Shown one piece after another: positions 12,122 through 36,809 of a DNA stretch of 46,647 bases. Below the pieces are notes generated by a model. That model made no database searches. It saw only the letters and a list, made by a program, of their open reading frames with translations, and had not been told where the DNA came from. Positions within the stretch are counted from its first letter, which is position 1, and every line of letters starts with the position of its first letter. Both the position numbers and the translations under genes were made by a program. Origin of the DNA: Anaerolineae bacterium (GTDB lineage: Bacteria; Chloroflexota; Anaerolineae; JAAYZQ01); NCBI GenBank assembly GCA_034434895.1, contig DAOTYI010000280.1, positions 1 to 46,647 of the forward strand, written 5' to 3'.

Positions 12122-12122
12122 A

Positions 12123-16107: not shown

Positions 16108-16122
16108 GATACGGAGAGGCAT

Positions 16123-20747: not shown

Positions 20748-22460
20748 ATGCAGGATACGCAATATGCAATCCGCAATCGAGTGATGGTGTTGGGGGTGGA
20801 TGGGGCGACGCTGGACCTGATCCTTCCCTGGGCTGAGGCCGGCCTGCTGCCCACCTTTGCCCGCCTGATGCGCCAGGGCAGTTGGGGGGTGCTGCGCAGT
20901 GTCGTGCCGCCGGTCAGCCCCACCGCCTGGAGCTCCTTTCTGACCGGCATGAATCCCGGCCGGCATGGCGTGTACGACTTTATCGGCCGCCGCCCGCGCA
21001 CCTACGAAAATCAACTGGCCAACGCCAGTTATCGCAGCGGTGCCTCGCTGTGGGGGCTGCTGAGCCGGGCTGGCCGACGGGTGACGGTCTTTAACGTGCC
21101 CCTGACCTACCCGGTCGAGCCGGTGAATGGGCTGTTCGTCAGCGGGCTGATGACCCCGGCCGATGCGGCCGACGCCACCTGGCCGCCGGAGTTGCTGGAC
21201 GACATCCGCCGTGCCGTGCCGGCCTTTAACTTTTCGCCGCCCAGCCTGATGCTGCCCGGCCAGGAGGCCGGGTTTGTGCAGGCCGTTGCCGACCTGAACG
21301 AGACGACACGGCGGGTAGCCCGCTATCTGTTGACGCGCCAGCCGTGGGATTTTTTCATGGCCGTCTTTATGGGCGCTGATATAATCTGCCATTTTCTGTG
21401 GAAGCAGATGGCCGAGGCCCGGCCGGACCACCTGGCCGATGCTGTCCAGAACTGCTATCGTCAGATTGACGCCGCCCTGGGCGAGCTGATCGAGATCGCC
21501 GGTCCAGAGACGCACCTGATCGTCATGTCGGATCACGGCTTCGGCCCGTTGGAACGGCAGATACATCTTAACTCCTGGCTGCTGGAGCGGGGCTATCTGG
21601 CCCTCAAGTCGGAACCGGCAACCCGGCTCCGTTCCCTCCTCTACCGCCTGGGCATCACCCGCATGGCCCTGTCGGAGCTGTTGCGCCGCCTGGGGCTGGG
21701 GGAGCGGCTGCGTCGCGCCGGGCGGTATGAGGAGCTGCGCCGCGCCGGGTTGGGGGTGCGGCAGCAAAGGACCGGCCCGCTCCGAGAGCTGGTCAGGCGG
21801 GTCTTTCTGACCATGTCCGACGTGGACTGGTCGCGCACCCGGCTCTTTTCCATCGGCTTTGCCGGGCCACTCTATGTCAACCTGAAAGGGCGCGACCCGC
21901 ACGGCATCGTCGCGCCGGGGGCCGAATACGAGGCGTTGCTGGCGCAGGTAACCGCCGACCTGAGGGCGCTGCGTGACCCACAAAGCGGCGAGCCGCTCAT
22001 CGGCCCCATCTACCGCCGCCAGGAGTTGTACCACGGGCCGCGCGCCGACGAGGCTCCCGACCTGATCTTGATGCCGCGTGACGAAAAAAATGCGCTGACC
22101 GGCATGCTGGAATTTGCCTCGCGCCGCTGGCTGACGCCGGTGCCGGAGCGGACCGGCACCCACCGCATGGACGGCATCCTGTTCCTGGCCGGGCCGGGCA
22201 TCCGCCCCGGCGTCCACCTCGACGACTCATCCATCATGGATGTCGCTCCCACCATCCTGGCGCTGCTGGGCCAGCCGATTCCCACGACGATGGACGGCCA
22301 CGTCCTGGAAAAGGCCATGACCGACGAACTGCGCGCCTCCCTGGAGATCACCCGCACAGCGGTGGAGGAATCCTGGGTTCCCGGCCGATCTGTCGCTTTC
22401 GATGATGAGGAAGAAGCCCTGTTGCGCGAACGGCTGCGCGGTCTGGGGTATGTGGCATGA
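20748..22460 (+). CDS. alkaline-phosphatase-superfamily protein, type I phosphodiesterase/NPP family (paralog 2)
   Basis: From ATG 20748 (MQDTQYAIRNRVMVLGVDGATLD). PPVSPTAWSSFLTG (Ser at the nucleophile position) and VMSDHGFGP. Tail DEEEALLRERLRGLGYVA. The ORF-track start at 20664 overlaps paralog 1 and is rejected. Confidence 0.8.
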   Translation: MQDTQYAIRNRVMVLGVDGATLDLILPWAEAGLLPTFARLMRQGSWGVLRSVVPPVSPTAWSSFLTGMNPGRHGVYDFIGRRPRTYENQLANASYRSGASLWGLLSRAGRRVTVFNVPLTYPVEPVNGLFVSGLMTPADAADATWPPELLDDIRRAVPAFNFSPPSLMLPGQEAGFVQAVADLNETTRRVARYLLTRQPWDFFMAVFMGADIICHFLWKQMAEARPDHLADAVQNCYRQIDAALGELIEIAGPETHLIVMSDHGFGPLERQIHLNSWLLERGYLALKSEPATRLRSLLYRLGITRMALSELLRRLGLGERLRRAGRYEELRRAGLGVRQQRTGPLRELVRRVFLTMSDVDWSRTRLFSIGFAGPLYVNLKGRDPHGIVAPGAEYEALLAQVTADLRALRDPQSGEPLIGPIYRRQELYHGPRADEAPDLILMPRDEKNALTGMLEFASRRWLTPVPERTGTHRMDGILFLAGPGIRPGVHLDDSSIMDVAPTILALLGQPIPTTMDGHVLEKAMTDELRASLEITRTAVEESWVPGRSVAFDDEEEALLRERLRGLGYVA

Positions 22461-22494
22461 GGCAGGAGGGAAGAGGCAGGAGGCAGGAGGCAAG

Positions 22495-24171
22495 ATGCAG
22501 GATACGCAATATGCAATCCGCAATAAAGTGATGGTGTTGGGGGTGGATGGGGCGACGCTGGACCTGATCCTCCCCTGGGCCGAGGCCGGCCTGCTGCCCA
22601 CCTTTGCCCGCCTGATGCGCCAGGGCAGTTGGGGGGTGCTGCGCAGTGTCGTGCCGCCGGTCACCCCCACCGCCTGGAGCTCCTTTCTCACCGGCAGCAA
22701 CCCCGGTCGGCACGGCCTGTACGACTTTGTCGGGCGGCGGCGGGGTAGTTACGACAACTGGCTGGCCAACGCCACCTATCGCAGTGGTGCCTCGCTGTGG
22801 GGGCTGCTGAGCCGGGCCGGCCGGCGGGTGACGGTCTTTAACGTGCCGCTGACCTACCCTGTCGAGCCGGTGAACGGGCTGCTTGTCAGCGGGCTGATGA
22901 CCCCCGCCGACGCCAGTGACGCCACCTGGCCGCCGGAGCTACTGGACGACATCCGTCGTGCCGTGCCGGAGTTTAACTTTTCCCCGCCCGGTGCCTTTTC
23001 GCCGGGTGAAGAGGCCAGGTTCGTGCAGGCCATCGCCGACCTGAACGAGACCACCCGGCAGGTAGCCCGCTATCTGTTGTCGCGCCAGCCGTGGGATTTC
23101 TATATGGCCGTGTTCATGGGCACCGACATTGCCGGGCATTTCTCGTGGAAGGCGATGGCCGATGGCCAGCCGCCGGAGTTGGCCGGCGCCATCCAGGATT
23201 GTTACCGGCAGGTGGATGCGGCCCTGGCCGGGTTGATCGAGGCTGCCGGGCCGGATGTGTACCTGATCGTCATGTCTGACCATGGCTTTGGTTCGCTGGA
23301 CCGTTACCTGCACATCAACGCCTGGCTGCGGGAGCGGGGCTATCTGAAACTGAAGCGGACCCCTGTCACCTGGCTCAAGCGAGCCTTCTACCGGCTGGGC
23401 CTTACCCCGCTGGCCGTCTACCGGGCGCTGCGCCGCCTGGGATTGGGGGAGCAGATACGCCGGGCCGGCCGGCAACGTTCCACGCTGGTCCAGAAGCTGC
23501 TCAAGCGCAGCTTCCTGTCGTTTGCCGATGTGGACTGGTCGCGCACCCGGCTCTTTTCCATCGGCTTTGCCGGGCCGCTCTATGTCAACCTGAAGGGCCG
23601 CGAGCCACACGGAATCGTTGCGCCGGGGGGCGAGTATGAAGCGTTGCTGGCGCAGGTGACTGCCGACCTGCGGGCGTTGCGCGACCCGGCAAGTGGTGAG
23701 CCGCTCATCGGTCCCATCTACCGCCGCCAGGAGCTGTACCAGGGCGAACGTGCCGACGAGGCCCCCGACCTGGTATTCCTGCCCCGCGATATGAGGGACG
23801 GCACCTTTGGCCTGATGGCCTTTGGCTCCAACCGCTGGCTGACGCCAGCCGCCGACCGGACCGGTACCCACCGCATGGAAGGGGTCCTGTTCCTGGCCGG
23901 GCCGGGCATCCGCCAGGGGGTGCATCTGGACGAGTCATCCATCCTGGACATTGCTCCCACCGTCCTGGCGCTGCTGGGCGTGCCCATCCCGGCGACGATG
24001 GATGGTCAGGTCCTGGGAAAGGCCATGACCGATGAACTGCGCGCATCTCTCGACATAACGTATCTGGCTCCGGCTGAGGAGCCTCTGCCGGTCGGCCTGC
24101 CCACCGACTTTGAGAGGGTGGAAGAGGAGCGGCTGCGTGAACACCTGCGCGGCCTGGGCTATGTGGCTTGA
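22495..24171 (+). CDS. alkaline-phosphatase-superfamily protein, type I phosphodiesterase/NPP family (paralog 3)
   Basis: From ATG 22495. The first ~200 nt differ from paralog 2 at only about 6 positions in my manual alignment. PPVTPTAWSSFLTG and VMSDHGFGS. Tail VEEERLREHLRGLGYVA. Confidence 0.8.
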   Translation: MQDTQYAIRNKVMVLGVDGATLDLILPWAEAGLLPTFARLMRQGSWGVLRSVVPPVTPTAWSSFLTGSNPGRHGLYDFVGRRRGSYDNWLANATYRSGASLWGLLSRAGRRVTVFNVPLTYPVEPVNGLLVSGLMTPADASDATWPPELLDDIRRAVPEFNFSPPGAFSPGEEARFVQAIADLNETTRQVARYLLSRQPWDFYMAVFMGTDIAGHFSWKAMADGQPPELAGAIQDCYRQVDAALAGLIEAAGPDVYLIVMSDHGFGSLDRYLHINAWLRERGYLKLKRTPVTWLKRAFYRLGLTPLAVYRALRRLGLGEQIRRAGRQRSTLVQKLLKRSFLSFADVDWSRTRLFSIGFAGPLYVNLKGREPHGIVAPGGEYEALLAQVTADLRALRDPASGEPLIGPIYRRQELYQGERADEAPDLVFLPRDMRDGTFGLMAFGSNRWLTPAADRTGTHRMEGVLFLAGPGIRQGVHLDESSILDIAPTVLALLGVPIPATMDGQVLGKAMTDELRASLDITYLAPAEEPLPVGLPTDFERVEEERLREHLRGLGYVA

Positions 24172-24245: not shown

Positions 24246-27200
24246 ATGAAGGGTGACAAGAAGGCGACGCTTCTGGCGTCATGGCGCACCTGGCCGGAGT
24301 GGTGGCTGCTCCTTCTGGGCCAGGCGATCTTTTGGGCGGTGCGTCCCTGGCTGATGGGGAGGGAATGGCATTGGGTGGTGGCCTGGGGAGCACTGGGCCT
24401 GTTCCTGTTGCCCGGCACTTCTTTGCTGGTGCTGCTGGGCGACAGTGGCAACTGGTGGGAGCGGCTGAGCCTGGCCTTTGTCGGCAGCCTGTCGCTGCCC
24501 AGCCTGCTAGCCCAGGCGGCCATGCTGCTCCACACCAACATCCAGACCTGCACCTGGGGCTTCCTGGCCCTGACCGGGGTTCTGCTGCTGGCTGCCCTGC
24601 TGCGCCAGATCTTGGGCCCTCCGGCCGGGGAGGCGATCCGCCCTGATGAAGGGCGTACCCCTTTCTGGCTGGTTCTTTTTCTGGCCGCGCTGCTGGCTGG
24701 TCTGGCGGTTTACTGGGCCAACGCCCCCATGGATTCCGACCAGTGGAACGCCCTGGCCTGGGTGCAAAACCTGCGCCATGATGCCCGGATGATGGCCGAG
24801 GAACCGCTCTATGGTCTGGGCATCCCCATCTCGCCGCGCTACATGTTTGTGCCGTGGCTGACCCATCAGGCCATGCTCTCCCTGCTGACCGGGCTGGACC
24901 CGGTGGACCTGCTCATCCCGCTGCGGCTGCCCCTGATCTTCCTGTCCATCGGCGCCGTCTACCGCCTGGCCCGCGCCATCACCCGGCAGCGCAAAGCCGC
25001 TGGCCTGGCGACGCTGGCCTGGGGCTTTTATCTGCTGGTCTGGAACCAGGGCTCCTATCCCGGCTACGACCTGGTGGTCCGCTCCGACCTGGACAAGATT
25101 CTGGCCAGTTTCACCCTGCTGCCGGTCATCCTGGACCTGGCCCTGGCTGCCCTGCAACGCGGCACCTGGCGCGAGTGGGCCTGGCTGGCGCTGGGTTCAG
25201 TGGCGGCTGCCCTGATGCACCCGTTGGCTGTGGGGCTGGTCGGCCTGTCGCTGCTGGGGCTGGCGGGCATCGAGGTGTTGCACCTGATCCTGCCCCCCTG
25301 GAAAACGATGACCCTGGCCGACCGGCGACGGCTGCTCCTCCGCCTGGCCCTGACGGCCTTGATCCTCGGCCTGGCGTTGATCCCGTCGCTTGTCGGGCTA
25401 CAGGCCGGCGCGGCCACGCCCACCGGCACTGTGGTCTCCAGCGGCCTGCAGGATACGCGCGACCCCAGCCTGGCTCGCAACCTGGGCTATGCCCTGGCCC
25501 AAAAGCGGCTCTGGATCCTGGACAGCGGCCGCTATATCGTCCATCCGCAGATGTTGCTCCAGCCGATCCATCTGGTGGCCCTGGTGGCCCTGCTCGTCCT
25601 CCTGCCTCTGCTGCGCCGCGAGCGGGGCGTCCGCCTGCTGCTGGGCATGGCCATCACCATCCCGATCTTGACCCTCAACCCGCTCACCGCCGGGCTGCTG
25701 GGGCGGTTCACCACCCCCTGGCTGCTGTACCGGCTGGCCTGGCCGGTGACCCTGGCGGCAGCGGTGGCTATCGGCTGGGGCCTGTATCTGCTGTTTCAGC
25801 GGCGGGTGTGGCGGCGGCTCAGCACCGTGGCGCTGATCGCCCTGTTGCTGGCCGTGGCCCTGGCGGCCATCCCGGCCTATCAGGCATCTGTCACCTGGCT
25901 GCGCGAACGCCGCGACACCTTTAGCGCCAACACCTGCTTCCAGGCCGGCCCGATCCTGCGACCTTTCCAGGAGCTGGTGCCCGGCGCGGAACCGCCGCCT
26001 GAGCTGCCCCCGCCCGACCCGCAAACCCAGGCAGGCCGGTGGCGGAGCGGCGTGACCGTCCTGGCCGACGATGACATGAACGGCTGCCTGACCTCCTACG
26101 CACCCTATGCCAACGTCATGGAGTTCCGCACTACCAACCTGATCCGCTACTATCCACCTGACAAAGAGGAGGTGGCCTGGCAACGGCTGTTCGATGCCCT
26201 GTACTACAGCAACGCCGAGTTTGTGGACCGGCGCTTCCTCGACCTCCTGGACCGATGGGCTATCGGCTATCTGATTGTGCGCCAGAGTTCGCCGTTAGAG
26301 CCGCAGTTGCGCCACCTGCCCGGCCTGTTCCAACCGGTCGCTTCGGCGGTGGGGCGCACCATCTACCGGGTGGAACGTCCCCTGTCGCCGTCAGCGGTGG
26401 TGGAGGCCAACACCCTCCTGGCTGAAGGCCGGTTCGAGCAGGGCATCGCGGCCTATCAGAGGCTCCTGAACACAGGGGATGACGACGCCCGTTTCCTGGC
26501 GCTGCTGGGCCTGGGGCGGGCCTATCTGCACACCGGGCAGGTGGAGCAGGCCATTACTGCCTGGCAGCAAGCCACCGCCTGGCCGGAGGAGGCCCTGCCC
26601 TGGGCCTGGCTGGCCGAGGCCTACCTGCTCCAGGGCCGTTCCGACCAGGCCCTGGCCGCCTATCGGCAGGCTGTGGCCCGCCAGCCGGGTAATGTGGCCT
26701 TTCAGACCCGGCTGGGCGACCTGTGCGCCGCCGCCGGCGACCTTGCCTGCGCCCAGGCGGCCTACAACGCCTCGCTGGCCGGCATCCCGCCGGAGAGCAG
26801 CACCGCTTACAACCGGTTGGGGCAGTTGTGGCAGAACGCCAATGCCAACGAGCAGGCCATCGCCGCCTATGAGAAGTCGCAGCAGATCTACGAAGGGTAC
26901 CTGACCTGGGGGGCATTGGGCGCCGTCTATCTGAAGCTGAGGCAGTGGGAGCGGGCCGAAGCGGCCTTCCGGCGTATCCTGGAGCTGGACCCGTGGGAGG
27001 AAAGTGCGCACCAATATCTGGGCCAGCTCTATGCCGCACAGAACCGGATGCAACAGGCAGAGGAGGAGTACCGGCTGGCCCTCCGCCTGAACCCCCTGGC
27101 CAGCGGCGGCTATGCTGCCCTGACGTCGCTGTGGGTCAGCCAGCAGGGGACCCCTGCTGCCATAGAGCGGCTCCGGGAGATGGTCGGCTTTCGGCTGGGC

Positions 27201-30200
27201 CTGGCCGACGCTCTGGCAGCGATGGCCGACCTGCAAAACCGGGCCGGCCGGCCCGACCAGGCGGTGGGGACTCAGCAGCGGGCGATTGACTGGTGGCCCC
27301 TGGCCGGCAGTGCCTACGACTCGCTGGGCACCTATCAGGCGGCTGTGGGCCGGACTGACGAAGCCGGAGCCAGTTTCCGCCGGGCGTTGGACCTGTCCAG
27401 CAGCGATGCGATGGCCTGGCTGGGCCTGGCCGGCCTGGCCCGTCAGGGCGGCGACCTGGCTTCGGCCCTGGGGTACAGCCTGCGTGCCGTCCAGGCAGCC
27501 CCCTATCAGGCCTATCCCCACCAGGCTCTGGCCGGCCTGTACGAGGCCCTGGATCAGGACGACCTGGCCCTGATCCACTATCAACTGGCTGTGTCGGTCG
27601 AACCGAACTCCGGCTCGCCGTTGCTGGCTTTGGGGGGCTACTACCAGCGCCAGGGAGACCTGGCCCGCGCCCAGGACCTGTATCAGCATGCTGAGGCGGT
27701 GCAGCCCAATGCCAGCCTCTACTTCAACCAGGGCCGGCTGGCTCAGCTCCAGGGGCAGTTGGACCTGGCCATTGAGCAGTTGCGCCGGGCGGTCGAGCTG
27801 GCACCCGGCTACGGCTACCTGCGCGTCGGTCTGGGGCAGGTCCAGACTCAGGCTGGCGACCGGCAGAGCGCCCTGGAGCAATACCAGGCCAGCATCCGTC
27901 TGGACCCCGGCTTTGTCAGCGGTTATCTGTCGCTGGGCAGCAGTTACGAAACTCTGGGGCAGTGGGACCTGGCCCAGGCCGCCTACCTGACCGCCACGCA
28001 GACGGTGCCGGGTGACCCGCAGGCCTATGTCAGCCTGGCCCGCCTGGCGGCCAGGAGGGGCGATCCTGAACGGTCGCTGGCCTGGTACCGGCAGGCCATG
28101 GAGGTCGCTCCCCGGTCGGCTCTGGCCTGGCGGGCTATGGGAGATTACTGGAAGGGGCGTGGCGACGTCCAGGCTGCCGTGGCTGCCTATCGGCAGGCCA
28201 TAGCCCTGGCCCCGGCCGACGTCGCCGGTTATGCAGCCCTGGGCAACTTGTACATCCAGACCAGTGATCTACAGGCTGCCGAGGCGCAGTACCGGGCCGG
28301 CCTGGAGTTCAATCCCGGCTCTGGCCAGTTGCACAGCCTGCTGGGCGACCTGTACGCCCGGCAGGGGCAGGCCGTGCCGGCCGAAGCGGCCTACCGGCGT
28401 GCCCTCCAGGCCGAGCCGATCTACCTGGGCGCCTATACCTCCCTGGCCAATCTGTACCGCCGCCAGGGGAGATTCGATGCCGCTCTGGCTACCTATCGTC
28501 AGGCAGAGTCAAAGCTGCCCGGCTCGGCTGACCTGCAGATCGCCCTGGCCGGCTATCTGCGCAGCCGGGACCAGCGCGACGAGGCGCTGGCCGCCTACCG
28601 CCGGGCCATCAACCTGTCGCCGGGGCTGGCCGGCCCCTGGGATAACCTGGGCGACGCCTGCCGCGCCTGGGGCCAGTTCGACCAGGCCGAGGCCGCCTAC
28701 CAGCAGGCGCGAACCCTGGAGCCGGGCAACCCGCAACCTCACCTGGGCCTGGGGCTGGTCTATCAGAGCCTGGGGCGCTTTGACCGGGCAGAAGCCGGGT
28801 TCCTGGCTGCTGCCGCCCTGGATGCCACCTCCGGCGAACCGTGGCAACGGCTGGGGGCGCTCTATCTGCTCCGGGGTCGCGCCGGCCAGGCGATCGCTGC
28901 CTGGCAGAAAGCGGTGGCCCTCAACCCGCTTGACCCCTATGCAGCCGTGGCGTTGGGCCAGGCCTATCAGCAGCTTGGCGACGCGGACAAAGCCCTGGCC
29001 GCGTTGCGCGCCGCCGTCCAGAGCTCCCCTCTGTCCGGCTACGCCCGCGATGCCCTGGCCCGGCTGCTGATGGCCCTGGGCCGGACCGACCAGGCGCAGG
29101 CCGAGTGGCTGGCCGCCACTCAAAACGATCCCACCTTTGTCCAGGGCTTTCTGGGCCTGGCCGACCTGTATGCCCGTCAGGGGCGATTTGAGCAGGCCGA
29201 GGCGACCTGTCGCGCCGCCCTGGATGCCGACCGTTCGGCCCCTGGCGGCTATGTCCGGCTGGGGCAGTTCTTGCAGGACCGGGGACGTTTTGACGAGGCA
29301 TTGGCCTGGTTCCAGGCCGGGGCTCAGGCCGCGCCCGCTTCCGGCTATGCCCACCTGGCCCTCGGTTCGGCCTATGTCCGGCGTGGACAGGTGGCCCGGG
29401 CGGAGGCCAGCTACCGCCGGGCCATGGCCGCCGATCCGACCTTTATCCAGTCCTCTCTGGCGCTGGCCGGCCTGTTGCGCAGCCAGGCCCGGCCCGGTGA
29501 AGCTGGGGCTGTGCTTCAGGAGGCCATCGCCGCCAACCCGGCCGACCCCAACGGTCCCATCGCCCTCGGTCAGCTCTATGCGGCGCAGAATCAGCCGGAG
29601 AAGGCGCTGGTCCAGTTCCAGGCGGCGGCGGCTCTGGCACCTGGCGCCGCCGCTCCCTCCCTGGCGGTGGGCGATTTCTACCGCAGCCGTGCCCGCTGGG
29701 ACGAGGCCCTGGCTGCTTATCGGAAGGCGACGGAATTGGAACCGGCAGCGGTGGGCGGCTATGTGCGCCTGGGCGACACCTATCATTCCCTGGGGCGTTT
29801 CACGGAGGCCGAACAGGCCCTGCAGCAGGCCATCCGGGCCGATGCCGGCAGCCCCGATCCCTGGCTGAGCCTGGCCCGCCTGTATCAGACCTGGGGCCGT
29901 TTTGACCAGGCAGCGGCGGCCAGCCAGACCGCCATTCAACTTGCCCGGCACCTGGCCGGCGGTTATCTGCGTCTGGGTGAGGCGTACCAGGCTCAAGGCC
30001 AGATTCAGGCGGCCCTTGAGGCCTACCGCCAGGCCACGGAGATGGCCGCTGGGGACCCACAAGCCCACGCTACAGTGGCCGGCCTGTACCGCGATCTGGG
30101 CCAGGTGGACCAGGCGGAAACCGCTTACCGCTCTTCCATTGCCTGCGACCGGAGCAACCCGGCCGGCTACGTGAGGCTGGCTGCCCTCTATCAGGCGCAG

Positions 30201-33200
30201 GGCCGTTTCGACGAGGCAGCGAGCACCTATCGGGAGGCTCTCCAGGCCAGCCCCGCTTCCGGCTGGCTGCGCGTCAGCCAGGCCGGTCTCTACAGCCTGC
30301 AGGGCCGGTATGACCAGGCCCTGGCCGCGCTCCAGGCCGCCCTGGAGGTCGAACCGACCTTTGCCCCGGCTTATTCCAGCCTGGCGAACCTCCATTTATT
30401 GCAGGCCGACGCCTCTGCTGCCGAGGCGGTTTTGCAGGCCGGTCAGGCTGCTGCCCCTGCCGACCCGGCCGCTTTCATCAACCTGGGGGCTTTTTACCAG
30501 AACCGTGCTCGCTTTGACCAGGCCGAGGCCCAATACCAGGCCGCTCAGGAAGCGGCGCCCGGTTCCGGTTGGGCGGCCTATGCCCTGGGTGGGTTTTATC
30601 AACAGCAGGGGGACCTGGCCCAGGCGACGGCTGCTTACAGCCATGCCCTGGAGCTGGAACCGACCTATCAGGCGCCCTACCTGGCGCTGGCCGGCATCCG
30701 CTGGGCCGACGGCGACCGGACCGGGGCCGAAGCCACCGCCCGCCGTGCGGTTGAAGTCGAGCCGGGTGATGTGAACGGGACGCTGCTGCTGGGCCAATTC
30801 CTGCTGGCCCGGGTCCGTTTTGACGAGGCGGTGGCCACCTGCCGGTCCGCTGTGGAAGAGTTCCCCGGCCTGTCCGGCTCCCGCATCGCGCTGTGCAACG
30901 CCTATCGCGCCCAGGGAAACCTCCAGGCAGCCCTGTCCGCCTGTCAGGAGGCTATCGCGGCCGAACCGGGATATGCTGCCGGCTATGCCGCGTTAGGGGA
31001 TGTCTACCGCACCCTTGACCGTCCGGTCGAGGCCGTGGCTGCCTACCGCCGGGCGCTGGCCCTGGACGCCACCAACGCCAATGCCAGCCTGGGATTGGCC
31101 CAGGTGTACCGGCTGGAGCAAAAGTGGACGCAGGCCGAGGCGGTGTACCAGGAGGTGCTGGCGCAGGCGCCGGGGGCTGGCTGGGCGCGGCTCGCGCTGG
31201 GCGACCTGTACCGTGCCTGGCGGCAGTGGGACCGGGCACTCGCTGCCTATCAGACGGCTCAGGCCTGGGAACCGGGCAACCCCCAGGCCCAGATCGGCCT
31301 GGGATTGACCTGGTGGGACCTGGGGCGGGTGGCGCAGGCTCAGGCTGCCTTTGAGGAGGCGATCCGCCTGGCGCCGGCCAACCCGGCCGGCCTGATCAAC
31401 CTGGCCCAACTTCTGCAAAACCAGGGGCATCCCCACGAGGCGTTGCAGCGGCTCAAACAGGCCGTGGCCGCCGCCCCGGCCTCCGGCTGGGCCTATACCT
31501 CGCTGGGCAACGCCTACCTGTTGCGTGCCGATCAACCCTCCGCCCTGGCCGATTACCGCCAGGCTATCACGGTCGAGCCGGCCTTTTTGTCCTCCTACAT
31601 GGCGCTGGCCAATCTCTACCTGCTCCAGGGGCAGCCCAGCGTGGCCCTGTCGCAGTACGAACAGGCCAGCCGCGTGGCCCCCAACTCGGCCTGGCCTTTC
31701 CTGCAGATCGGCAATCTGCGCCAGGCCCAGAACCGACTGGATGAGGCCCTGGCCGGCTACGCTGCTGCCCTGGCCCTTGAACCGCTCAGCAGCGACGCCT
31801 GGGTGGGGCGCGGCGATGTCTATCGGCGGCAGGGCCGTCCGGCCGAGGCCCTCAACGCCTACCGCCAGGCCACGGCGCTCAACCCGACCTCAGGGGCGGC
31901 CTGGGCCAGCCTGGGAAGCCAGTACCAGCGCCGGGCCAATCTGCAGGAGGCGGTAGAGGTGTTGCTGCGCGGCATCCGTTCCGCGCCCGATAGCTACTCC
32001 CTGTACAGCACCCTGCGGCTGGCCCTGGCCCAGGCCGACCGGCTGGATGAGATGCCGGCCCTGGCCCGGCAGGCTATCGCCGACAATCCGGGCAAGGCGT
32101 GGCCCTATCTGCTGCTGGGGGATGTCTACAAAGCGCAGTTCCACCCCGACCAGGGGCTGGATGCCTATCGGCGGGCGGTCCAGCTCGAACCGGGCAATGT
32201 AACGGCCCGGCTGGCCCTGGGTTGGGCCTACCAGGTGCTGGGCGATCTGGACAACGCGGCAGCCCAACACCGGGCGGCCTACAACCTGGAGCCGGGCAAC
32301 GCCGAAGTGGTAAAGGCCCTGGCCAGTGGCGACCGGGCGCAGGGCCAACGTCAGGCCTCCATTGACCACTACCTGGCTGCCGCCGACCTGAACCGCAGCT
32401 CGGCGGGCGCCCTGATCACCCTGGCCCTGCTCTACCGGCTGGAAGGAAACCTCCAGGCCAGCCAGGATACCTATGAGCTGGCCTTGCAGCGCGAGCCGTC
32501 GAACCTGTGGGCTCACCTGGGCCTGGCCCAAACTCTGACCGACCTGGAGGAGTATGATGCGGCCATCGAGCGTTACCTTCAGGCCGCCGGGGTGGACCGC
32601 AGTTCCGCCTGGCCATACCTGTTCCTGGGCAGCCTGTACCTGGGGCTGAACGACCCGGCTTCGGCCGAGGCCGCCTACCGCGAGGCGCTGGCCCGCGAGC
32701 CGGGCAACGTCTACGGCTACGCCTGGTTGGGCAACCTGCTGGCCCGCCAGGAAAAGGTTGAGGAGGCCAGGGCGCAGTTCCAGAAGGCAGTGGAACTGTT
32801 CCCCGGTTCAGCGGTGGCCTGGGACCGGATGGGCTACGGCTACCGGCTGCTGAACAAGATGGACGAGGCCATCGAGAGCTATCAACAGGCCCTGCGGCTG
32901 GACCCGGCCCGGACCGCGACCTACGACGCCATCCTGTCGATCTATGCCGGGTGGGGTCGGCTGGATTCCTACCTGCCGCTGTTTCAGGGCTGGCGCAGGG
33001 CCTATCCGGGCGAACCCTGGCCCACCGGCCTGCTGGCCCGCACCTACGAAAAGCTGGACCGGGTGGATGATGCCATCCGCGAGTATGAGGCCATCCTGGC
33101 CCGCGTGCCCGAATACGCCGATGCTCACTACTCGCTGGCGCTGCTCTATGAGCGGGCCAGCCGCCGCGACGACGCCCTGAAACAGTGGAATATCTACCTG

Positions 33201-33557
33201 ACGCTGGCCTCCTCCAACCCGCAGCAGTTCGAGGCGGAAGAGCGGCTGCAACGCCTGAGCCAGATCGTCATCACCTCGCCCCAGGCTGAAGCGGTAGTCA
33301 GGGGCCGGGTGGAGGTGCGGGGCACAGCCAATCTGGCCAGCGGGTTTGTCTATTACAAACTGGAGTACCGCGCCCCTGGCGGCGAGTGGCAACTGATCGG
33401 CGACCTGCACGACCGGCCGGTGGTGGACGGGCTGCTGGGGGTGTGGGATGTATCAGGGCTGGCACCGGGGCGCTACCAGCTCCGGCTGGTGATTGTGGAC
33501 AACACCGGCAACTTTTTGCCGCCCTTTGAACTATGGGTGAACGTGGCCAGACCATGA
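24246..33557 (+). CDS. giant (3103 aa) membrane protein: N-terminal polytopic GT-C-like domain + ~65-70 tetratricopeptide repeats + C-terminal Ig-like beta-sandwich domain
   Basis: One uninterrupted ORF. The first ~545 aa have more than 12 hydrophobic helices. A ~160-aa soluble segment follows (...FLDLLDRWAIGYLIV), then about 2300 aa of 34-residue A..Y..AL.L.P....A...LG..Y periodicity. The last ~95 aa (ITSPQAEAVVRGRVEVRGTA...YYKLEYRAPGGEWQLIG...GRYQLRLVIVDNTGN) look like an Ig/FN3-like module. Confidence 0.8.
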   Translation: MKGDKKATLLASWRTWPEWWLLLLGQAIFWAVRPWLMGREWHWVVAWGALGLFLLPGTSLLVLLGDSGNWWERLSLAFVGSLSLPSLLAQAAMLLHTNIQTCTWGFLALTGVLLLAALLRQILGPPAGEAIRPDEGRTPFWLVLFLAALLAGLAVYWANAPMDSDQWNALAWVQNLRHDARMMAEEPLYGLGIPISPRYMFVPWLTHQAMLSLLTGLDPVDLLIPLRLPLIFLSIGAVYRLARAITRQRKAAGLATLAWGFYLLVWNQGSYPGYDLVVRSDLDKILASFTLLPVILDLALAALQRGTWREWAWLALGSVAAALMHPLAVGLVGLSLLGLAGIEVLHLILPPWKTMTLADRRRLLLRLALTALILGLALIPSLVGLQAGAATPTGTVVSSGLQDTRDPSLARNLGYALAQKRLWILDSGRYIVHPQMLLQPIHLVALVALLVLLPLLRRERGVRLLLGMAITIPILTLNPLTAGLLGRFTTPWLLYRLAWPVTLAAAVAIGWGLYLLFQRRVWRRLSTVALIALLLAVALAAIPAYQASVTWLRERRDTFSANTCFQAGPILRPFQELVPGAEPPPELPPPDPQTQAGRWRSGVTVLADDDMNGCLTSYAPYANVMEFRTTNLIRYYPPDKEEVAWQRLFDALYYSNAEFVDRRFLDLLDRWAIGYLIVRQSSPLEPQLRHLPGLFQPVASAVGRTIYRVERPLSPSAVVEANTLLAEGRFEQGIAAYQRLLNTGDDDARFLALLGLGRAYLHTGQVEQAITAWQQATAWPEEALPWAWLAEAYLLQGRSDQALAAYRQAVARQPGNVAFQTRLGDLCAAAGDLACAQAAYNASLAGIPPESSTAYNRLGQLWQNANANEQAIAAYEKSQQIYEGYLTWGALGAVYLKLRQWERAEAAFRRILELDPWEESAHQYLGQLYAAQNRMQQAEEEYRLALRLNPLASGGYAALTSLWVSQQGTPAAIERLREMVGFRLGLADALAAMADLQNRAGRPDQAVGTQQRAIDWWPLAGSAYDSLGTYQAAVGRTDEAGASFRRALDLSSSDAMAWLGLAGLARQGGDLASALGYSLRAVQAAPYQAYPHQALAGLYEALDQDDLALIHYQLAVSVEPNSGSPLLALGGYYQRQGDLARAQDLYQHAEAVQPNASLYFNQGRLAQLQGQLDLAIEQLRRAVELAPGYGYLRVGLGQVQTQAGDRQSALEQYQASIRLDPGFVSGYLSLGSSYETLGQWDLAQAAYLTATQTVPGDPQAYVSLARLAARRGDPERSLAWYRQAMEVAPRSALAWRAMGDYWKGRGDVQAAVAAYRQAIALAPADVAGYAALGNLYIQTSDLQAAEAQYRAGLEFNPGSGQLHSLLGDLYARQGQAVPAEAAYRRALQAEPIYLGAYTSLANLYRRQGRFDAALATYRQAESKLPGSADLQIALAGYLRSRDQRDEALAAYRRAINLSPGLAGPWDNLGDACRAWGQFDQAEAAYQQARTLEPGNPQPHLGLGLVYQSLGRFDRAEAGFLAAAALDATSGEPWQRLGALYLLRGRAGQAIAAWQKAVALNPLDPYAAVALGQAYQQLGDADKALAALRAAVQSSPLSGYARDALARLLMALGRTDQAQAEWLAATQNDPTFVQGFLGLADLYARQGRFEQAEATCRAALDADRSAPGGYVRLGQFLQDRGRFDEALAWFQAGAQAAPASGYAHLALGSAYVRRGQVARAEASYRRAMAADPTFIQSSLALAGLLRSQARPGEAGAVLQEAIAANPADPNGPIALGQLYAAQNQPEKALVQFQAAAALAPGAAAPSLAVGDFYRSRARWDEALAAYRKATELEPAAVGGYVRLGDTYHSLGRFTEAEQALQQAIRADAGSPDPWLSLARLYQTWGRFDQAAAASQTAIQLARHLAGGYLRLGEAYQAQGQIQAALEAYRQATEMAAGDPQAHATVAGLYRDLGQVDQAETAYRSSIACDRSNPAGYVRLAALYQAQGRFDEAASTYREALQASPASGWLRVSQAGLYSLQGRYDQALAALQAALEVEPTFAPAYSSLANLHLLQADASAAEAVLQAGQAAAPADPAAFINLGAFYQNRARFDQAEAQYQAAQEAAPGSGWAAYALGGFYQQQGDLAQATAAYSHALELEPTYQAPYLALAGIRWADGDRTGAEATARRAVEVEPGDVNGTLLLGQFLLARVRFDEAVATCRSAVEEFPGLSGSRIALCNAYRAQGNLQAALSACQEAIAAEPGYAAGYAALGDVYRTLDRPVEAVAAYRRALALDATNANASLGLAQVYRLEQKWTQAEAVYQEVLAQAPGAGWARLALGDLYRAWRQWDRALAAYQTAQAWEPGNPQAQIGLGLTWWDLGRVAQAQAAFEEAIRLAPANPAGLINLAQLLQNQGHPHEALQRLKQAVAAAPASGWAYTSLGNAYLLRADQPSALADYRQAITVEPAFLSSYMALANLYLLQGQPSVALSQYEQASRVAPNSAWPFLQIGNLRQAQNRLDEALAGYAAALALEPLSSDAWVGRGDVYRRQGRPAEALNAYRQATALNPTSGAAWASLGSQYQRRANLQEAVEVLLRGIRSAPDSYSLYSTLRLALAQADRLDEMPALARQAIADNPGKAWPYLLLGDVYKAQFHPDQGLDAYRRAVQLEPGNVTARLALGWAYQVLGDLDNAAAQHRAAYNLEPGNAEVVKALASGDRAQGQRQASIDHYLAAADLNRSSAGALITLALLYRLEGNLQASQDTYELALQREPSNLWAHLGLAQTLTDLEEYDAAIERYLQAAGVDRSSAWPYLFLGSLYLGLNDPASAEAAYREALAREPGNVYGYAWLGNLLARQEKVEEARAQFQKAVELFPGSAVAWDRMGYGYRLLNKMDEAIESYQQALRLDPARTATYDAILSIYAGWGRLDSYLPLFQGWRRAYPGEPWPTGLLARTYEKLDRVDDAIREYEAILARVPEYADAHYSLALLYERASRRDDALKQWNIYLTLASSNPQQFEAEERLQRLSQIVITSPQAEAVVRGRVEVRGTANLASGFVYYKLEYRAPGGEWQLIGDLHDRPVVDGLLGVWDVSGLAPGRYQLRLVIVDNTGNFLPPFELWVNVARP
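26400..33230 (+). repeat. TPR array (protein-level 34-aa repeats, ~102-nt period) within the giant ORF
   Basis: Recurrent A-x-x-x-Y-x-x-A-L-x-x-x-P / LG-x-x-Y-x-x-x-G-x-x-x-x-A pattern throughout. Boundaries are approximate. Confidence 0.8.
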
Positions 33558-33606
33558 TGGCAGGGTCATAACCTTGTCCCCAACTCGGCCTGGGTCTACA
33601 GCAGGG

Positions 33607-35151
33607 ATGGAAGAAGAAGGGCTGGGGCGATTCCTGCGCCGCTCGACGACGGTGACGCTGTTCACTGCGCTGGGCGTGGTTGCCGGCTTTGTGGTAGACC
33701 TGTTGATCGTCGCCCGCTTTGGCGTGGGGATCGCGACCGATGCCTTTTTCGCCGCCTATACCCTGCCCTTTATCCTGGTCACCACCCTGGCGGCCATCCA
33801 GCCGGTGCTGGTCACCGTCCTGAGCGGATGCCGGGGCGACGACACAGCTTTCGGCGCTCTATTGAACCTGGTCGGGTTGGCAGCCCTGATGGTGACGGTG
33901 GGGGGGATGGTGGCTGCCCGGCCGCTCATCGCCGTCACGGCGCCTGGCTTTGGCCCGGACCAGGCTTCCCTGGCAGCGCATCTGGCGCGTATCCTCTTCC
34001 TGCGGGTGCTGCTGGCTGCGGTGAGCGAGGTGTGCCGGGCCGGGTTCTACGCCCGGCAGCGGTTTGCCCTGGCGGCGTTCAGCAGTGCCCTGCCCGGTCT
34101 GGTGGCCGCTCTCCTGTTGGCCGTTGTCCGGCGGGCCGGGGACGAGGGGGTCGGGGTGGTTGCCTGGAGCCTGGTGATCGGGTCGTTGCTCCAGGCGGTG
34201 CTTCTGGTTGGGGTGCTGTTTGCCCGGCTGCGGGTGCCCTACCGCCCTGGGCCGGGTTGCTCCAGGCTGGTATTGCACCAGGTGGCGGTGCTGGTCCCGG
34301 CGCCGCTGGCCGGCCTGCTGCTGCGCCAGGGGGTGGTCCTGGCCGAGCGGCTCCTCGGTTCCTACCTGCCGGCGGGCAGCCTGACGGCGTTGAGCTATGC
34401 CAACCGCCTGACCATGATCGCCGCCGGCATCCTGTTCGACGGCCCGACCACGGTGGCGTTGCCCTCGCTGGCGGCCCTGTGGAGCGAGGGGCGGGGGGAG
34501 GCCGCCCGCGCCGGGTTGAGCCGGCTCCTCAGGCTGATAGCGACCGTGGCTCTGCCGGCCGGGCTGGGCCTGGCTGCCCTGAGCACCCCCCTGGTCCGCC
34601 TTTTTTTTGAACGCGGCCAGGTGGATCACCAGGCAGCCCTGCTGCTGGGCACAGTGCTGGGAGTCTATGCCCTGAGCCTGCCTTTCATCGGGCCGTATCG
34701 TGCCGTCCAGACCTTCTCCTATGCCATCCAGCGGCCCTGGCCGGTGGTGTTTCTTCACGGCGGGCTATCGGCCCTGGCGGTGGCGCTGGACCTGGCCCTG
34801 GTCGGGCCGCTGGGGGTGACCGGTCTGGCATGGGGGTTTGTGCTGGGCAGCAGCCTGATCGCAATGGTTGGGCTGGTGTGGATGATCCGCCGGGCAGGAG
34901 ATGTCGGCTGGCGGGCGTTGAGCACCTGGACGTGGCGGCTGGGGCTGGCTTCTGCGGCGATGGCGGCGGTGATGTGGGGTGTGAGCCGCTGGCTGGGAGC
35001 GGCGGACGCGGGAACCGGCTTGTGGAGGCTGCTGTTCATCCTGGCGGTGAGTGGGCTGGCCGGCCTTCTTTCCTTTCTTGGGCTGGGAGCGATCTTGCGC
35101 CTGGAGGTGATCTCGATGATGTGGAACCGCCTCAAGGTGGCCAGGAGTTAA
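33607..35151 (+). CDS. MurJ/MviN-family (MOP superfamily) lipid-linked oligosaccharide flippase
   Basis: About 514 aa, about 14 helices. The N-terminus LGVVAGFVVDLLIVARFGVGIATDAFFAAYTLPFIL parallels the MurJ signature (LGFxRdxxxAxxFGxxxxtDAFxxAfxlP). ATG 33607 is preferred; TTG 33574 is possible. Confidence 0.8.
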   Translation: MEEEGLGRFLRRSTTVTLFTALGVVAGFVVDLLIVARFGVGIATDAFFAAYTLPFILVTTLAAIQPVLVTVLSGCRGDDTAFGALLNLVGLAALMVTVGGMVAARPLIAVTAPGFGPDQASLAAHLARILFLRVLLAAVSEVCRAGFYARQRFALAAFSSALPGLVAALLLAVVRRAGDEGVGVVAWSLVIGSLLQAVLLVGVLFARLRVPYRPGPGCSRLVLHQVAVLVPAPLAGLLLRQGVVLAERLLGSYLPAGSLTALSYANRLTMIAAGILFDGPTTVALPSLAALWSEGRGEAARAGLSRLLRLIATVALPAGLGLAALSTPLVRLFFERGQVDHQAALLLGTVLGVYALSLPFIGPYRAVQTFSYAIQRPWPVVFLHGGLSALAVALDLALVGPLGVTGLAWGFVLGSSLIAMVGLVWMIRRAGDVGWRALSTWTWRLGLASAAMAAVMWGVSRWLGAADAGTGLWRLLFILAVSGLAGLLSFLGLGAILRLEVISMMWNRLKVARS

Positions 35152-35174: not shown

Positions 35175-36809
35175 ATGGGAGCCAATAGGACCACTACCCA
35201 ATCTCCAATACCCCATGCCCGCCTCTTGATCCTTGGCCTGGACGGGTTGTGCTGGCCGCTTCTGGAGCCGTTGCTGGCAGCGGGGATCATGCCCTGTCTG
35301 GCGCGCCTGCGGGATGAGGGGGCGTGGGGGCCGTTGACCTCGGTGGTGCCCACTCACTCGGCTGCGGCGTGGGCCTCGTTCCTCACCGGACAGAATCCGG
35401 CCCGCCACGGCATCACCGATTTTATGGTCCGCCAGCCGGACGGCACCTACCGCCACGCCAGGCCCCACCCGGCGACAACCCTGTGGCACCATCTGGGGCG
35501 TGGCGGTCTGCGGGTCGGCGCTTTCAACTTTCCGGTCAGCTATCCGCCCGAACCGGTGAACGGCTTTCTGGTGTCGGGCATGCTCACACCCAGGGGACGG
35601 ACCTTCACCTATCCGCCGGAGCTGGGAGAGGAACTGCTGAGCCGCTTCGCTGACTACCGTTTCGACCTGGAATGGCAGCTCTACTGTGGCCGGGAGAGGG
35701 CACTGCTGCGCGATCTGACGGCCATGACCGGGCAGCGGGCCGAGGTCGCCTGCTTTCTGCGCGATCGCTACGCGCCCGATTGCCTGGCCGTGGCCTTTAT
35801 CGGGCCGGATCGGCTGCAACATGCGCTGTGGCACCATCTGGACCCAACCCATCCCCGCCACGACCCGGTCCAGGCGGCAGCGTTGCGCGACGCTATCTAT
35901 GGCTTTTACACGGCGCTGGACCAGGCAGTGGGCCGTCTGGTAGCGGACGCCGGCCCTGAGACGACAGTCCTGGTCCTGTCGGACCACGGTTTTCAGGCAG
36001 CAGCCCGACAGTTCCGCGCCGACGAGTGGCTGGCCGGGCATGGCTGGCTGGCCTTTCAAGCAAGTCGCTCCCGCCTGGAACAGTGGGTGCGCCGGCTGGA
36101 TAGGCCCTGGGTGCAGCATCTGCGGCGGCGACTGGTGAAAGACGTTTCACGTCATTTCAAGTCATTTCAGCCTGGTGGTACCCTCGACTGGTCGCGGACC
36201 GTCGCCTTTTGCCCGTGGAATGCCCAGCAGGGCATCCGCCTCAACCTGCGTGGCCGGGAACCACAGGGCATTGTCGCGCCGGGTGCCGGCTATGACCGGC
36301 TGCGGGAAGAGATCCGCCAGGCCTTGCTGGAGACGACGGAGCCACAGACCGGCCTGCGGGTGATAGACCGAGTGTGGCGGCGGGAGGAGCTGTACAGCGG
36401 GCCGTTCCTGGGGGAGATGCCCGATCTGGTCTTTACCCTGCGCCCTCCCTTTTCAGCCAGCCCGGTGCAACAGCGGCTATGGGCCGATACCGGCTGGGCG
36501 TCGGGCGACCACAGCCTGGAGGGGATGTTCATCGCCTGGGGGCGGGGGGTGGTTCCGGGCCGGGTGGAAAACGCGGCGCTGGTGGACGTGGCCCCTACGG
36601 CCCTGTATCTGATGGGCCGGCCGGTGCCTGCGGCGATGGATGGGCGGGTGTTGACCGCGATGCTGGACCCTGCGTTCCTGGGGGCCAATCCGCCGTGCCG
36701 GGAGGAGGGAGCGCAACCTGTGTCAGGGGCGATCTCCGCCGGTCAGGTGCTGACGCCGGAAGAGGAAGTTGAGCTTCAGGCGCGGTTGCGGGGGTTGGGG
36801 TATCTATGA
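35175..36809 (+). CDS. alkaline-phosphatase-superfamily protein, type I phosphodiesterase/NPP family (paralog 4, dispersed)
   Basis: LILGLDGLCW, VVPTHSAAAWASFLTG (Ser at the nucleophile position) and VLSDHGFQ. Tail PEEEVELQARLRGLGYL. Confidence 0.78.
   Translation: MGANRTTTQSPIPHARLLILGLDGLCWPLLEPLLAAGIMPCLARLRDEGAWGPLTSVVPTHSAAAWASFLTGQNPARHGITDFMVRQPDGTYRHARPHPATTLWHHLGRGGLRVGAFNFPVSYPPEPVNGFLVSGMLTPRGRTFTYPPELGEELLSRFADYRFDLEWQLYCGRERALLRDLTAMTGQRAEVACFLRDRYAPDCLAVAFIGPDRLQHALWHHLDPTHPRHDPVQAAALRDAIYGFYTALDQAVGRLVADAGPETTVLVLSDHGFQAAARQFRADEWLAGHGWLAFQASRSRLEQWVRRLDRPWVQHLRRRLVKDVSRHFKSFQPGGTLDWSRTVAFCPWNAQQGIRLNLRGREPQGIVAPGAGYDRLREEIRQALLETTEPQTGLRVIDRVWRREELYSGPFLGEMPDLVFTLRPPFSASPVQQRLWADTGWASGDHSLEGMFIAWGRGVVPGRVENAALVDVAPTALYLMGRPVPAAMDGRVLTAMLDPAFLGANPPCREEGAQPVSGAISAGQVLTPEEEVELQARLRGLGYL

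Follow-up and report, generated by a model that had tools for sequence, protein, structure and literature searches.

In every domain of life, cell envelopes are assembled and decorated by GT-C glycosyltransferases. Enzymes in which a GT-C membrane domain is followed by lumenal or periplasmic tetratricopeptide repeats (TPRs) are already known, among them the eukaryotic TMTC1-4, bacterial PMT_2-TPR proteins and TfpW of Pseudomonas aeruginosa. The TPRs of TMTC proteins and TfpW are thought to bind the acceptor. TPRs are also found in the exopolysaccharide scaffolds BcsC, PelB, AlgK and PgaA, in which ~10-20 repeats are fused to or paired with outer-membrane barrels. In the mycobacterial GT-C enzymes AftA, AftD and EmbA/B/C (PDB 8if8, 6wby and 7bvc), a polytopic core is combined with C-terminal extracytoplasmic domains. 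Enzymes of this type use polyprenyl-phosphate sugar donors and envelope polysaccharide acceptors, and extra acceptor-binding domains are common in them (PMC11127046). In the GT-C definition used here, the acidic loop normally comes after transmembrane (TM) helix 1 (PMC11127046). The combination of GT-C enzymes, MOP/MATE flippases and lipid-linked donors is an established pattern, and new GT-C families are still being founded, with GT136 described in 2024 (PMC11127046). Here, a 46,647-nt stretch of the genome of an Anaerolineae bacterium (GenBank assembly GCA_034434895.1, contig DAOTYI010000280.1), referred to as the window, was found to carry a giant gene (coordinates 24246-33557, + strand) for a 3103-amino acid (aa) protein that is predicted to join a GT-C-fold membrane domain to an exceptionally long TPR solenoid.

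What is new in this protein is a sequence-orphan GT-C family, defined on a structural model, with a fold assignment and candidate active-site residues. Also new are a four-helix N-terminal element, an STT3/AftA-like soluble domain that is followed by ~66 TPRs and an FN3-like cap, a clade-wise conservation of length, and a conserved partner of the alkaline-phosphatase family. The parts of the gene, which is an ATG-initiated open reading frame (ORF) of 3103 codons with no internal stop, are as follows.

24246-33557, + strand: whole gene, DUF6077-type GT-C/TPR/FN3-like fusion protein, 3103 aa (ATG-initiated ORF)
24294-24614, + strand: four N-terminal membrane helices before the acidic loop, with invariant P56-G57 and conserved E72-R73 (aa 17-123; AlphaFold2)
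24663-25916, + strand: predicted GT-C-fold membrane core of 11 helices, with G273, D283-K284, P293, H325, P434, P479, R496 and W499 at or near the outer membrane face (aa 140-557; AlphaFold2, Foldseek and alignment)
24720-24899, + strand: candidate catalytic loop, extracytoplasmic, with two juxtamembrane helices and a D163-S-D165 motif, in which D165, R198 and W204 are invariant (aa 159-218; AlphaFold2 and alignment)
25917-26393, + strand: extracytoplasmic alpha/beta domain with a C564/C614 pair, ...FLDLLDRWAIGYLIV...PLEPQLRHLP (aa 558-716; AlphaFold2 and phmmer conservation)
26394-33233, + strand: TPR solenoid of ~66 repeats (aa 717-2996; Pfam TPR_1/2/8/16/19 and a hidden Markov model (HMM) of the protein's own repeats)
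27531-32015, + strand: indel-free block of 44 TPRs, all in exact 34-aa register (aa 1096-2590)
33258-33554, + strand: seven-strand FN3/Ig-like beta-sandwich after a capping helix (aa ~3005-3103; AlphaFold2, mean predicted local distance difference test score (pLDDT) 90)

An earlier note on this DNA, made from the sequence alone, had read the protein as a membrane domain, a TPR solenoid and a beta-sandwich tail, and the AlphaFold2 models together with the Pfam and HMM repeat scans gave the same three-part layout. For the N-terminal part, aa 1-715 were modelled from an alignment (A2, n=17) in which the window protein was joined by 16 trimmed relatives of diverse sequence (24-44% identity to it). 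The model has a mean pLDDT of 87.2, a predicted TM-score (pTM) of 0.90 and 15 membrane helices, and a Kyte-Doolittle scan found 13-15 hydrophobic segments within aa 18-552, which agrees with the more than 12 TM-like helices in ~545 aa described previously. When the model was compared with the PDB using Foldseek, the kind of search against GT-C structures that the note had proposed, the best 21 matches were all GT-C enzymes (E 4.6e-7 to 0.15, TM-score 0.30-0.54). AftA (8if8) ranked first (E 4.6e-7, TM-score 0.48/0.54), and the others included yeast and human STT3, PglB (3rce/5ogl), AglB (3waj), the C-mannosyltransferase DPY19 (7zlh), AftD, Pmt4 and EmbA/B. The Pmt1-Pmt2 complex and PimE were found further down the list (E 0.3-0.6), mixed with transporters, which appeared just at E > 0.2 and with TM-scores < 0.1, and non-GT-C membrane proteins had TM-scores < 0.15. 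As the fold matches with a significant score were GT-C enzymes only, the suspected GT-C-like character of the N-terminal domain is upheld, and the domain is predicted to have the GT-C glycosyltransferase fold. A transporter or a Wzy/O-antigen-ligase-type domain was also considered and was rejected, as no Wzy_C or transporter Pfam match was obtained and the fold scores of transporters were noise.

The columns invariant in all 17 sequences of A2 are P56, G57, D165, R198, W204, G273, D283, K284, P293, H325, P434, P479, R496 and W499. The first four helices of the model (17-38, 42-64, 70-94 and 99-123, pLDDT > 90) are an extra element in comparison with other GT-C enzymes, in which the catalytic loop usually comes directly behind TM helix 1. 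The next TM helix (140-158) is followed by two juxtamembrane helices (164-178 and 203-215), and the D163-S-D165 motif sits at the start of the first of these. GT-C enzymes have a polytopic membrane domain of 7-13 or more helices, a range that takes in the 15 helices of the model. Another hallmark is an early outside loop that has juxtamembrane helices and a conserved acidic residue (as DxD, DDx or ExD), and such a residue is present here in D165, which is predicted to be extracytoplasmic. The earlier note could not locate a clear acidic loop motif; the motif does exist and became visible in the alignment. A count of Lys and Arg in the short loops gave 19 in 105 residues on the side assigned as inside and 7 in 134 residues on the side assigned as outside, and this bias puts the N-terminus inside. 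The acidic loop would lie at the outer face together with D283-K284, H325 and R496, and the part beyond aa 558 would be outside. The topology would thus be a cytoplasmic N-terminus, 15 helices across the membrane, and residues 558-3103 outside the cell membrane.

The first part of this external region is an alpha/beta domain of ~160 aa that is confident in the AlphaFold2 model, with strands at 603-607, 622-624, 673-679, 695-701 and 704-709, and with a proline-rich linker (aa 581-600) of low confidence. Matches of family members found with phmmer extend through this domain to query residues ~709-715. Both C564 and C614 are kept in 11 of 17 relatives, which fits an extracytoplasmic location. The alignments to the 21 best Foldseek matches span 450-780 columns, and as all except those to Pmt4 and EmbA exceed 600 columns, the soluble domain takes part in most of the fold matches, as in STT3, PglB and AftA. 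The comparison made earlier with the soluble domain of STT3 therefore stands at the level of the fold, with full-length matches to STT3, PglB and AglB that include the alpha/beta domain after the last membrane helix. The acidic residue in an outer loop is a further likeness, and a strand of the form '...D-x-x-Y-h-h-V' resembles the STT3 sequence 'LDVDYVLV'. However, the WWDYG motif that defines oligosaccharyltransferases was found neither in aa 558-716, also as a WWD-type variant, nor in the family consensus. The protein also has no STT3 Pfam match and no PDB sequence match, and is not a member of GT66; an identity as an oligosaccharyltransferase was ruled out by the missing motif.

At the sequence level, DUF6077 (PF19554) and DUF6541 (PF20176) are the sole Pfam families matched by the N-terminal domain and its relatives. 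In a scan of the whole protein, DUF6077 matched aa 78-339 with 36.4 bits (cut-off 27), and a relative (P0001) scored 35.4 bits. Among the 17 members of A2, 11 match DUF6077 (best E 6e-18) and 4 match DUF6541. Both are families with no described function, searches of the literature for DUF6077, PF19554 and DUF6541 found no mention of them, and the DUF6077 model covers aa 78-339 only, so that the fusion to TPRs and an FN3-like domain lies outside the family definition. No match to the N-terminal domain was obtained in an NCBIfam scan. As a GT-C fold is predicted here in a domain that matches no characterised family, the protein appears to represent a new sequence-orphan GT-C family with candidate active-site residues, and the DUF6077/DUF6541 group, with at least 339 cluster representatives, gains a predicted GT-C fold and candidate catalytic residues. 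If the domain is active, the protein founds a new CAZy-type family. The DUF6077 match was absent when N-terminal fragments of 560-718 aa were scanned alone, even at E <= 10. This is taken to be an effect of the HMMER bias/composition filter, and fragment scans can consequently give false negatives.

The family was revealed by an exhaustive phmmer search with aa 1-715 against 1.84 billion cluster representatives, which returned 339 proteins with E <= 1e-3, 46 of them with E <= 1e-30. A word-index protein search was nearly blind to it: the N-terminal domain alone retrieved only P0001, the 17-sequence alignment added only P0151, and no match was obtained with the soluble domain. It seems that Leu/Ala-rich words swamp the index, or that its coverage of this family is sparse. 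A metagenome locus scan with a closer alignment (A4) found 3 loci. The sequences of 153 relatives from these searches were examined for length, with 85 being 600-1300 aa, 33 being at least 2000 aa and 5 at least 3000 aa. All relatives inspected share the N-terminal module, which is followed by a TPR array of variable length, and members of ~700 aa with no TPR tail also occur (e.g. P0046, P0062, P0066 and P0068). The tripartite architecture is therefore recurrent and is not confined to the window.

Pfam TPR families (TPR_1/2/8/11/16/19) match the protein from ~aa 720 to 2990 with up to 564 bits (E 1e-130 to 1e-178). An HMM built from the protein's own repeats found 62 units in aa 721-2894, a low-scoring match at aa 297-307 being spurious, and three more degenerate units extend the array to ~aa 2996, giving a total of about 66 TPRs, within the range of roughly 65-70 consecutive repeats estimated in the earlier note. 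The repeat consensus is G/A-x-x-Y...G...A...A...Y...A...P. The array had been called exceptionally long, and it is indeed far longer than those of TMTC proteins or TfpW. However, it is not unique, as 33 of the 153 relatives are of at least 2000 aa, and the group repeatedly bears some of the longest regular TPR arrays that could be found here. A literature search for giant TPR proteins in Chloroflexi found nothing relevant.

A TPR superhelix rises by ~0.9 nm per repeat, as in designed consensus-TPR structures and the TPR domain of OGT. The 66 repeats would accordingly be roughly 55-60 nm long and the uninterrupted block of 44 repeats ~40 nm, and the solenoid would be long enough to cross a monoderm wall. 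A non-canonical stretch in the proximal TPRs (aa 960-1000, nt ~27123-27245; ...QQGTPAAIERLREMVGFRLGLADAL...) is recognisable in distant and in short family members. Its conservation suggests that the enzyme domain may in the ancestral state have been paired with just the first ~10 repeats, and that the distal repeats may be a later extension.

As repeats from a metagenome-type source can be mis-assembled, the possibility that the ORF arose in assembly, from the collapse or expansion of repeats or from two genes run together, was considered. In the DNA, the direct-repeat families of the gene are just 60-80% identical at spacings that are multiples of 102 nt, Tandem Repeats Finder reported no 102-nt tandem array, and the mean pairwise identity between repeats in the protein is 28%. 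No higher-order period and no recent amplification was found among the TPRs. With this degree of identity the repeats are old and diverged, and an assembler would not collapse them. In an orthologue scan that used one genome per species, the Anaerolineae metagenome-assembled genome (MAG) H21_249 (locus L002), which is independent of the window, was found to carry an ORF of exactly 3103 aa with 94.7% nucleotide identity, in which 490 substitutions over 9312 nt are not accompanied by a single indel; its N-terminal domain is 97% identical to that of the window protein. A more distant orthologue of 3165 aa (P0004), encoded on a 45-kb contig (L004), aligns in one collinear blastp high-scoring segment pair (window residues 19-3100 with 21-3163, 32% identity). 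An assembly artefact is therefore ruled out for practical purposes and is hardly credible, and the single unbroken 9.3-kb ORF first noticed in the sequence was recovered, with no frameshift or stop, in a second genome. The exact 3103-aa protein of the window is not on record.

Between the window and L002, synonymous and nonsynonymous codon differences number 49 and 17 in the membrane part, 10 and 4 in the soluble domain, 179 and 161 in the TPR region, and 8 and 2 in the C-terminal tail, indicating purifying selection in the + frame that is strongest in the membrane domain. The GC content over the gene is 0.67-0.71, the same as in the remaining window. Long antisense ORFs within the gene (e.g. 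28509-30395, - strand) are of the kind that GC- and Ala-rich coding sequence commonly gives rise to.

Length is nearly constant within clades of the family. Five relatives (P0022, P0024, P0027, P0031 and P0037) of 2247-2253 aa share 36-45% identity with just 15-53 gap columns, and a sixth protein (P0091) in what is then a 2246-2253-aa group is 26-28% identical to the other five with 133-167 gap columns. P0004 and P0005 (3165 and 3173 aa) are 42% identical with 58 gap columns, and P0102 and P0118 (3203 and 3225 aa) are 44% identical with 42 gap columns. The near-constant length and the small number of gaps within clades indicate that each repeat has an orthologous counterpart and that the number of repeats is constrained. 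This fits a scaffold of defined length, and is no proof of a ruler function.

The C-terminal tail was modelled from an alignment of ten C-terminal tails (A3), and the ~95-aa beta-sandwich-like domain anticipated in the earlier note took shape as a seven-strand sandwich. The best Foldseek match is the Fn3-like module of Clostridium thermocellum CbhA (3pe9; TM-score 0.58/0.71), and the next matches are other FN3/Ig-type sandwiches, many of them in carbohydrate-active or adhesion proteins. Sequence-level matches to Gmad2 and Big_7 were sub-threshold only, and the C-terminal fold is a generic one. The same tail closes 9 other relatives, always at the extreme C-terminus, and this conserved terminal position suggests a tip that is in contact with something.

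The function of the protein was considered in the light of the surrounding genes, which are all co-directional. Upstream are genes for an MFS_3 transporter, an amine-oxidase-like flavoprotein, a 489-aa protein and three tandem Pfam Phosphodiest proteins. Downstream are a MurJ/MOP flippase-like gene, a fourth Phosphodiest gene, and genes for a Wzy_C protein and a 1139-aa beta-helix protein, followed by two GT4 genes, an epimerase/dehydratase and a WecG/TagA-family transferase. The closest neighbours are located as follows.

17571-19040, + strand: 489-aa protein of unknown family, with one N-terminal membrane helix (hydrophobic segment aa 25-47) and a proline-rich linker
19037-24171, + strand: three tandem alkaline-phosphatase-superfamily (Pfam Phosphodiest) genes, directly upstream of the giant gene (Pfam 1e-39 to 1e-42)
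33574-35151, + strand: MurJ/MOP-family lipid-linked-sugar flippase-like protein (Pfam MurJ 3.5e-48, Polysacc_synt_3)
35175-36809, + strand: fourth Phosphodiest gene (Pfam Phosphodiest)

We consider it moderately probable that the protein is an integral-membrane GT-C enzyme of the DUF6077/DUF6541 group that transfers a lipid-linked sugar to an extracytoplasmic acceptor, with the solenoid as a fixed-length scaffold. By analogy with solved GT-C enzymes, D165 would be the catalytic or acceptor-activating carboxylate, and basic residues such as R198, K284, H325 and R496 would bind the phosphate group of the donor, a sugar or oligosaccharide linked to polyprenyl phosphate. The MurJ/MOP-type protein encoded next door would bring the donor to the outer leaflet, where the membrane domain would move the sugar or oligosaccharide from the polyprenyl-phosphate carrier to the extracytoplasmic acceptor. 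The acceptor would most likely be the envelope glycopolymer of the surrounding Wzx/Wzy-type locus (WecG/TagA, GT4, GT2 and Wzy_C), which may be decorated or attached as in the 'three-component' type of post-polymerisation glycosylation. Outside the membrane, the alpha/beta domain is predicted to pack against the membrane core, an arrangement also found in STT3, PglB and AftA, and to be followed by the TPR superhelix and the terminal FN3/Ig-like domain. The solenoid would then serve as a scaffold of fixed length that holds the acceptor or partner proteins and extends across the wall, and its FN3-like tip would touch an outer layer. The ruler or scaffold idea in the earlier note agrees with the predicted outside topology and with the conserved repeat number.

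The MurJ-like gene begins 17 nt past the stop codon of the giant gene, and the same arrangement is present in L002. A promoter/terminator scan, otherwise uninformative, showed no convincing terminator between the two genes. The MurJ-like protein scored 186 bits against NCBIfam murJ_mviN, which is below the cut-off. The adjacency of a GT-C gene and a MOP-superfamily flippase-like gene in a polysaccharide locus is shared with the three-component systems (GtrA/B/S, CsbB-GtcA-YfhO and GT136). However, those systems differ from the window, where no clear polyprenyl-phosphate sugar synthase is adjacent and the conserved partners are cytoplasmic Phosphodiest proteins.

Several observations weigh against this function. 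The Foldseek TM-scores are moderate (0.4-0.54) and the root-mean-square deviations are high, and the acidic loop comes after the fifth helix by count, and not after the first as is usual in GT-C enzymes. PDB phmmer and profile searches with the N-terminal domain were empty, and no characterised GT-C family in Pfam (STT3, PMT/PMT_2, DUF1736, ArnT, AftA_N, Arabinose_trans, YfhO or GT87) was matched, only DUFs. A comparison of the family profile with Escherichia coli ArnT by hhalign was not significant (probability 0.3%), and a local ArnT match around the DK motif in that alignment was not used as evidence. The giant gene has no GtrB/ArnC-like polyprenyl-phosphate sugar synthase gene as a neighbour, and the locus has just one GT2 gene, which lies ~20 kb upstream (3663-4766) and has no ArnC/GtrB-type match. 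The MurJ neighbour was not seen in L004. Finally, TPRs usually bind proteins, and this speaks for a protein acceptor.

The lack of a recognisable CAZy family signature and the non-canonical position of the acidic loop would also suit a pseudoenzyme, in which the GT-C-fold domain only anchors the protein in the membrane or binds lipid, and the whole is a purely structural surface fibre made of a TPR rod and an FN3 tip. This is very unlikely, given that D165, R198, D283, K284, H325 and R496 are invariant among sequences only 24-44% identical and that constraint within the protein is greatest in the membrane domain (49 synonymous against 17 nonsynonymous differences). The ~700-aa members with no TPR tail likewise argue that the membrane domain has a function of its own.

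Compared with an enzyme that acts on the glycopolymer, a glycosyltransferase for secreted or surface proteins, with the TPR array as a substrate platform as in TMTC1-4, PMT and Pseudomonas TfpW, is the principal competitor and is a possible, if rather unlikely, explanation. TPRs are the classic protein-binding modules; TfpW, a bacterial GT-C enzyme with a periplasmic C-terminal TPR domain, glycosylates pilin, and the TMTCs are 11-TM GT-C enzymes with lumenal TPRs. STT3, PglB and AglB are among the best fold matches, and a candidate substrate is available in the large beta-helix protein of the locus (38311-41730), which is anchored in the membrane or secreted. However, the absence of WWDYG indicates that the protein is not an oligosaccharyltransferase, no similarity to PMT, PMT_2 or DUF1736 was found, and the best single fold match, AftA, is a polysaccharide-priming enzyme. 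The genetic context is dominated by polysaccharide-assembly genes, and 66 TPRs are far above the number in known protein-glycosylating GT-C enzymes. The parallel with TMTC and PMT_2-TPR proteins drawn in the earlier note thus holds for the architecture and fails for the sequence family. Relative to these proteins, the window protein has 15 helices instead of 11, an FN3-like cap, and ~66 TPRs against the roughly ten that the earlier note gives for those proteins. Its TPRs are separated from the membrane part by an alpha/beta domain of 160 aa, and its fusion of a GT-C domain to TPRs looks like an independent one.

AftA and its relatives are alike in having a polytopic core with external C-terminal domains. 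However, the window protein has no detectable sequence similarity to the Aft/Emb enzymes and no AftA_N or Arabinose_trans Pfam match, and carries four extra N-terminal helices. Its addition is a TPR solenoid with an FN3-like domain, whereas theirs are carbohydrate-binding modules, and its host is of the Chloroflexota type, whereas theirs are actinobacterial.

A further alternative is a scaffold for export or assembly, in which the TPR superhelix guides a nascent polymer through the envelope and the GT-C domain performs the en-bloc transfer or ligation of a lipid-PP-linked polymer to an anchor. The TPR domains of BcsC, PelB, AlgK and PgaA guide or template a nascent polymer through the envelope, and they resemble the window protein in having a long extracytoplasmic TPR superhelix tied to polysaccharide biogenesis. 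The conserved repeat number within clades, the predicted extracytoplasmic location and the adjacent Wzx/MurJ-like and Wzy_C genes would fit this function, as would a full-length fold like that of the en-bloc transferases STT3 and PglB and the resemblance of the C-terminal FN3-like module to modules of carbohydrate-active enzymes. It is nevertheless unlikely. We know of no export scaffold fused to an inner-membrane GT-C, the solenoid of the window protein differing from the known ones in being fused to a cytoplasmic-membrane GT-C domain and in being about three times longer, and the locus already has a Wzy_C (ligase/polymerase-like) protein. In addition, members with only 5-10 TPRs are common (85 of 153 sequences are of 600-1300 aa), so that a long solenoid is not essential to the core function of the family.

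Transfer of a lipid-linked sugar to the glycopolymer by an active GT-C enzyme remains the preferred function, and in this case the protein would be a tractable one in which to study the role of very long extracytoplasmic solenoids in the little-studied envelopes of Chloroflexota. A more specific and quite improbable extension is that the FN3-capped superhelix of 55-60 nm acts as a molecular ruler or track on the active enzyme. It might set the distance from the membrane to an outer layer (sheath or S-layer) in filamentous Chloroflexota, or hold the glycopolymer in its groove for modification at defined positions, with the cytoplasmic alkaline-phosphatase-family partners supplying an unusual, possibly phosphodiester-linked donor. 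If true, this would be a new principle for the control of envelope thickness or glycan pattern in monoderm bacteria.

The Phosphodiest pairing is the most conserved feature of the genetic context. In seven loci compared, a Phosphodiest gene was found upstream of the GT-C/TPR gene in six, namely the window, L001 (a Chloroflexi MAG; coordinates 4915-8484), L002, L003 (8333-9997), L004 (6058-7770) and L005 (1160-2899), the upstream sequence of L006 being too short to judge. It is directly upstream in all of these save L005, where ~2 kb lie between the genes. The relative in L003 is just 29% identical to the window protein, and its genome has a type II secretion system. The two genes may form a conserved functional pair, and the pairing is a testable lead on the donor pathway. 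No signal peptide was found in the Phosphodiest copies of the window, and these proteins are therefore probably cytoplasmic.

The second and third Phosphodiest ORFs of the window have a near-identical Cys-rich N-terminal extension, CC..C..WGMWHEAGGKR.EAGGKMQDTQYAIRN (20664-20790 and 22402-22530), that overlaps the preceding gene. As the extension is shared and the bodies of the two genes have ~83% nucleotide identity, a recent tandem duplication is indicated, and the true start codons may be internal Met codons.

The 489-aa protein encoded upstream of the Phosphodiest genes has no Pfam or NCBIfam match. Homologues are also located upstream in L001, L002 and L004, in synteny with the module, and the protein could be a partner or an acceptor. 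The 1139-aa protein (38311-41730) is a right-handed beta-helix protein that has a signal or anchor segment at its N-terminus and matches no NCBIfam model. It may be located at the surface, or may act on polysaccharides as a lyase or modifying enzyme, and it is a candidate substrate for glycosylation.

Further from the giant gene, an 488-aa protein with ~9 hydrophobic segments is encoded at 2044-3510; it has no Pfam or NCBIfam match, and hhalign showed no relation to the GT-C family profile. At 15643-16122, a segment encoding a PD-(D/E)XK_3 nuclease-family ORF (15265-16104) is missing in the otherwise 95%-identical L002, and is a strain-specific insertion or deletion. The region 5122-14353 encodes a DegT-type aminotransferase, for which the closest NCBIfam model, below its cut-off, is an ArnB-like UDP-Ara4N aminotransferase, followed by a set resembling type-II fatty acid synthase/polyketide synthase systems (two SDRs, FabA, a phosphopantetheinyl transferase, two ketosynthases, an acyltransferase, a ketoreductase and a GNAT protein), suggesting an acylated amino-sugar or lipid product tied to the polysaccharide locus.

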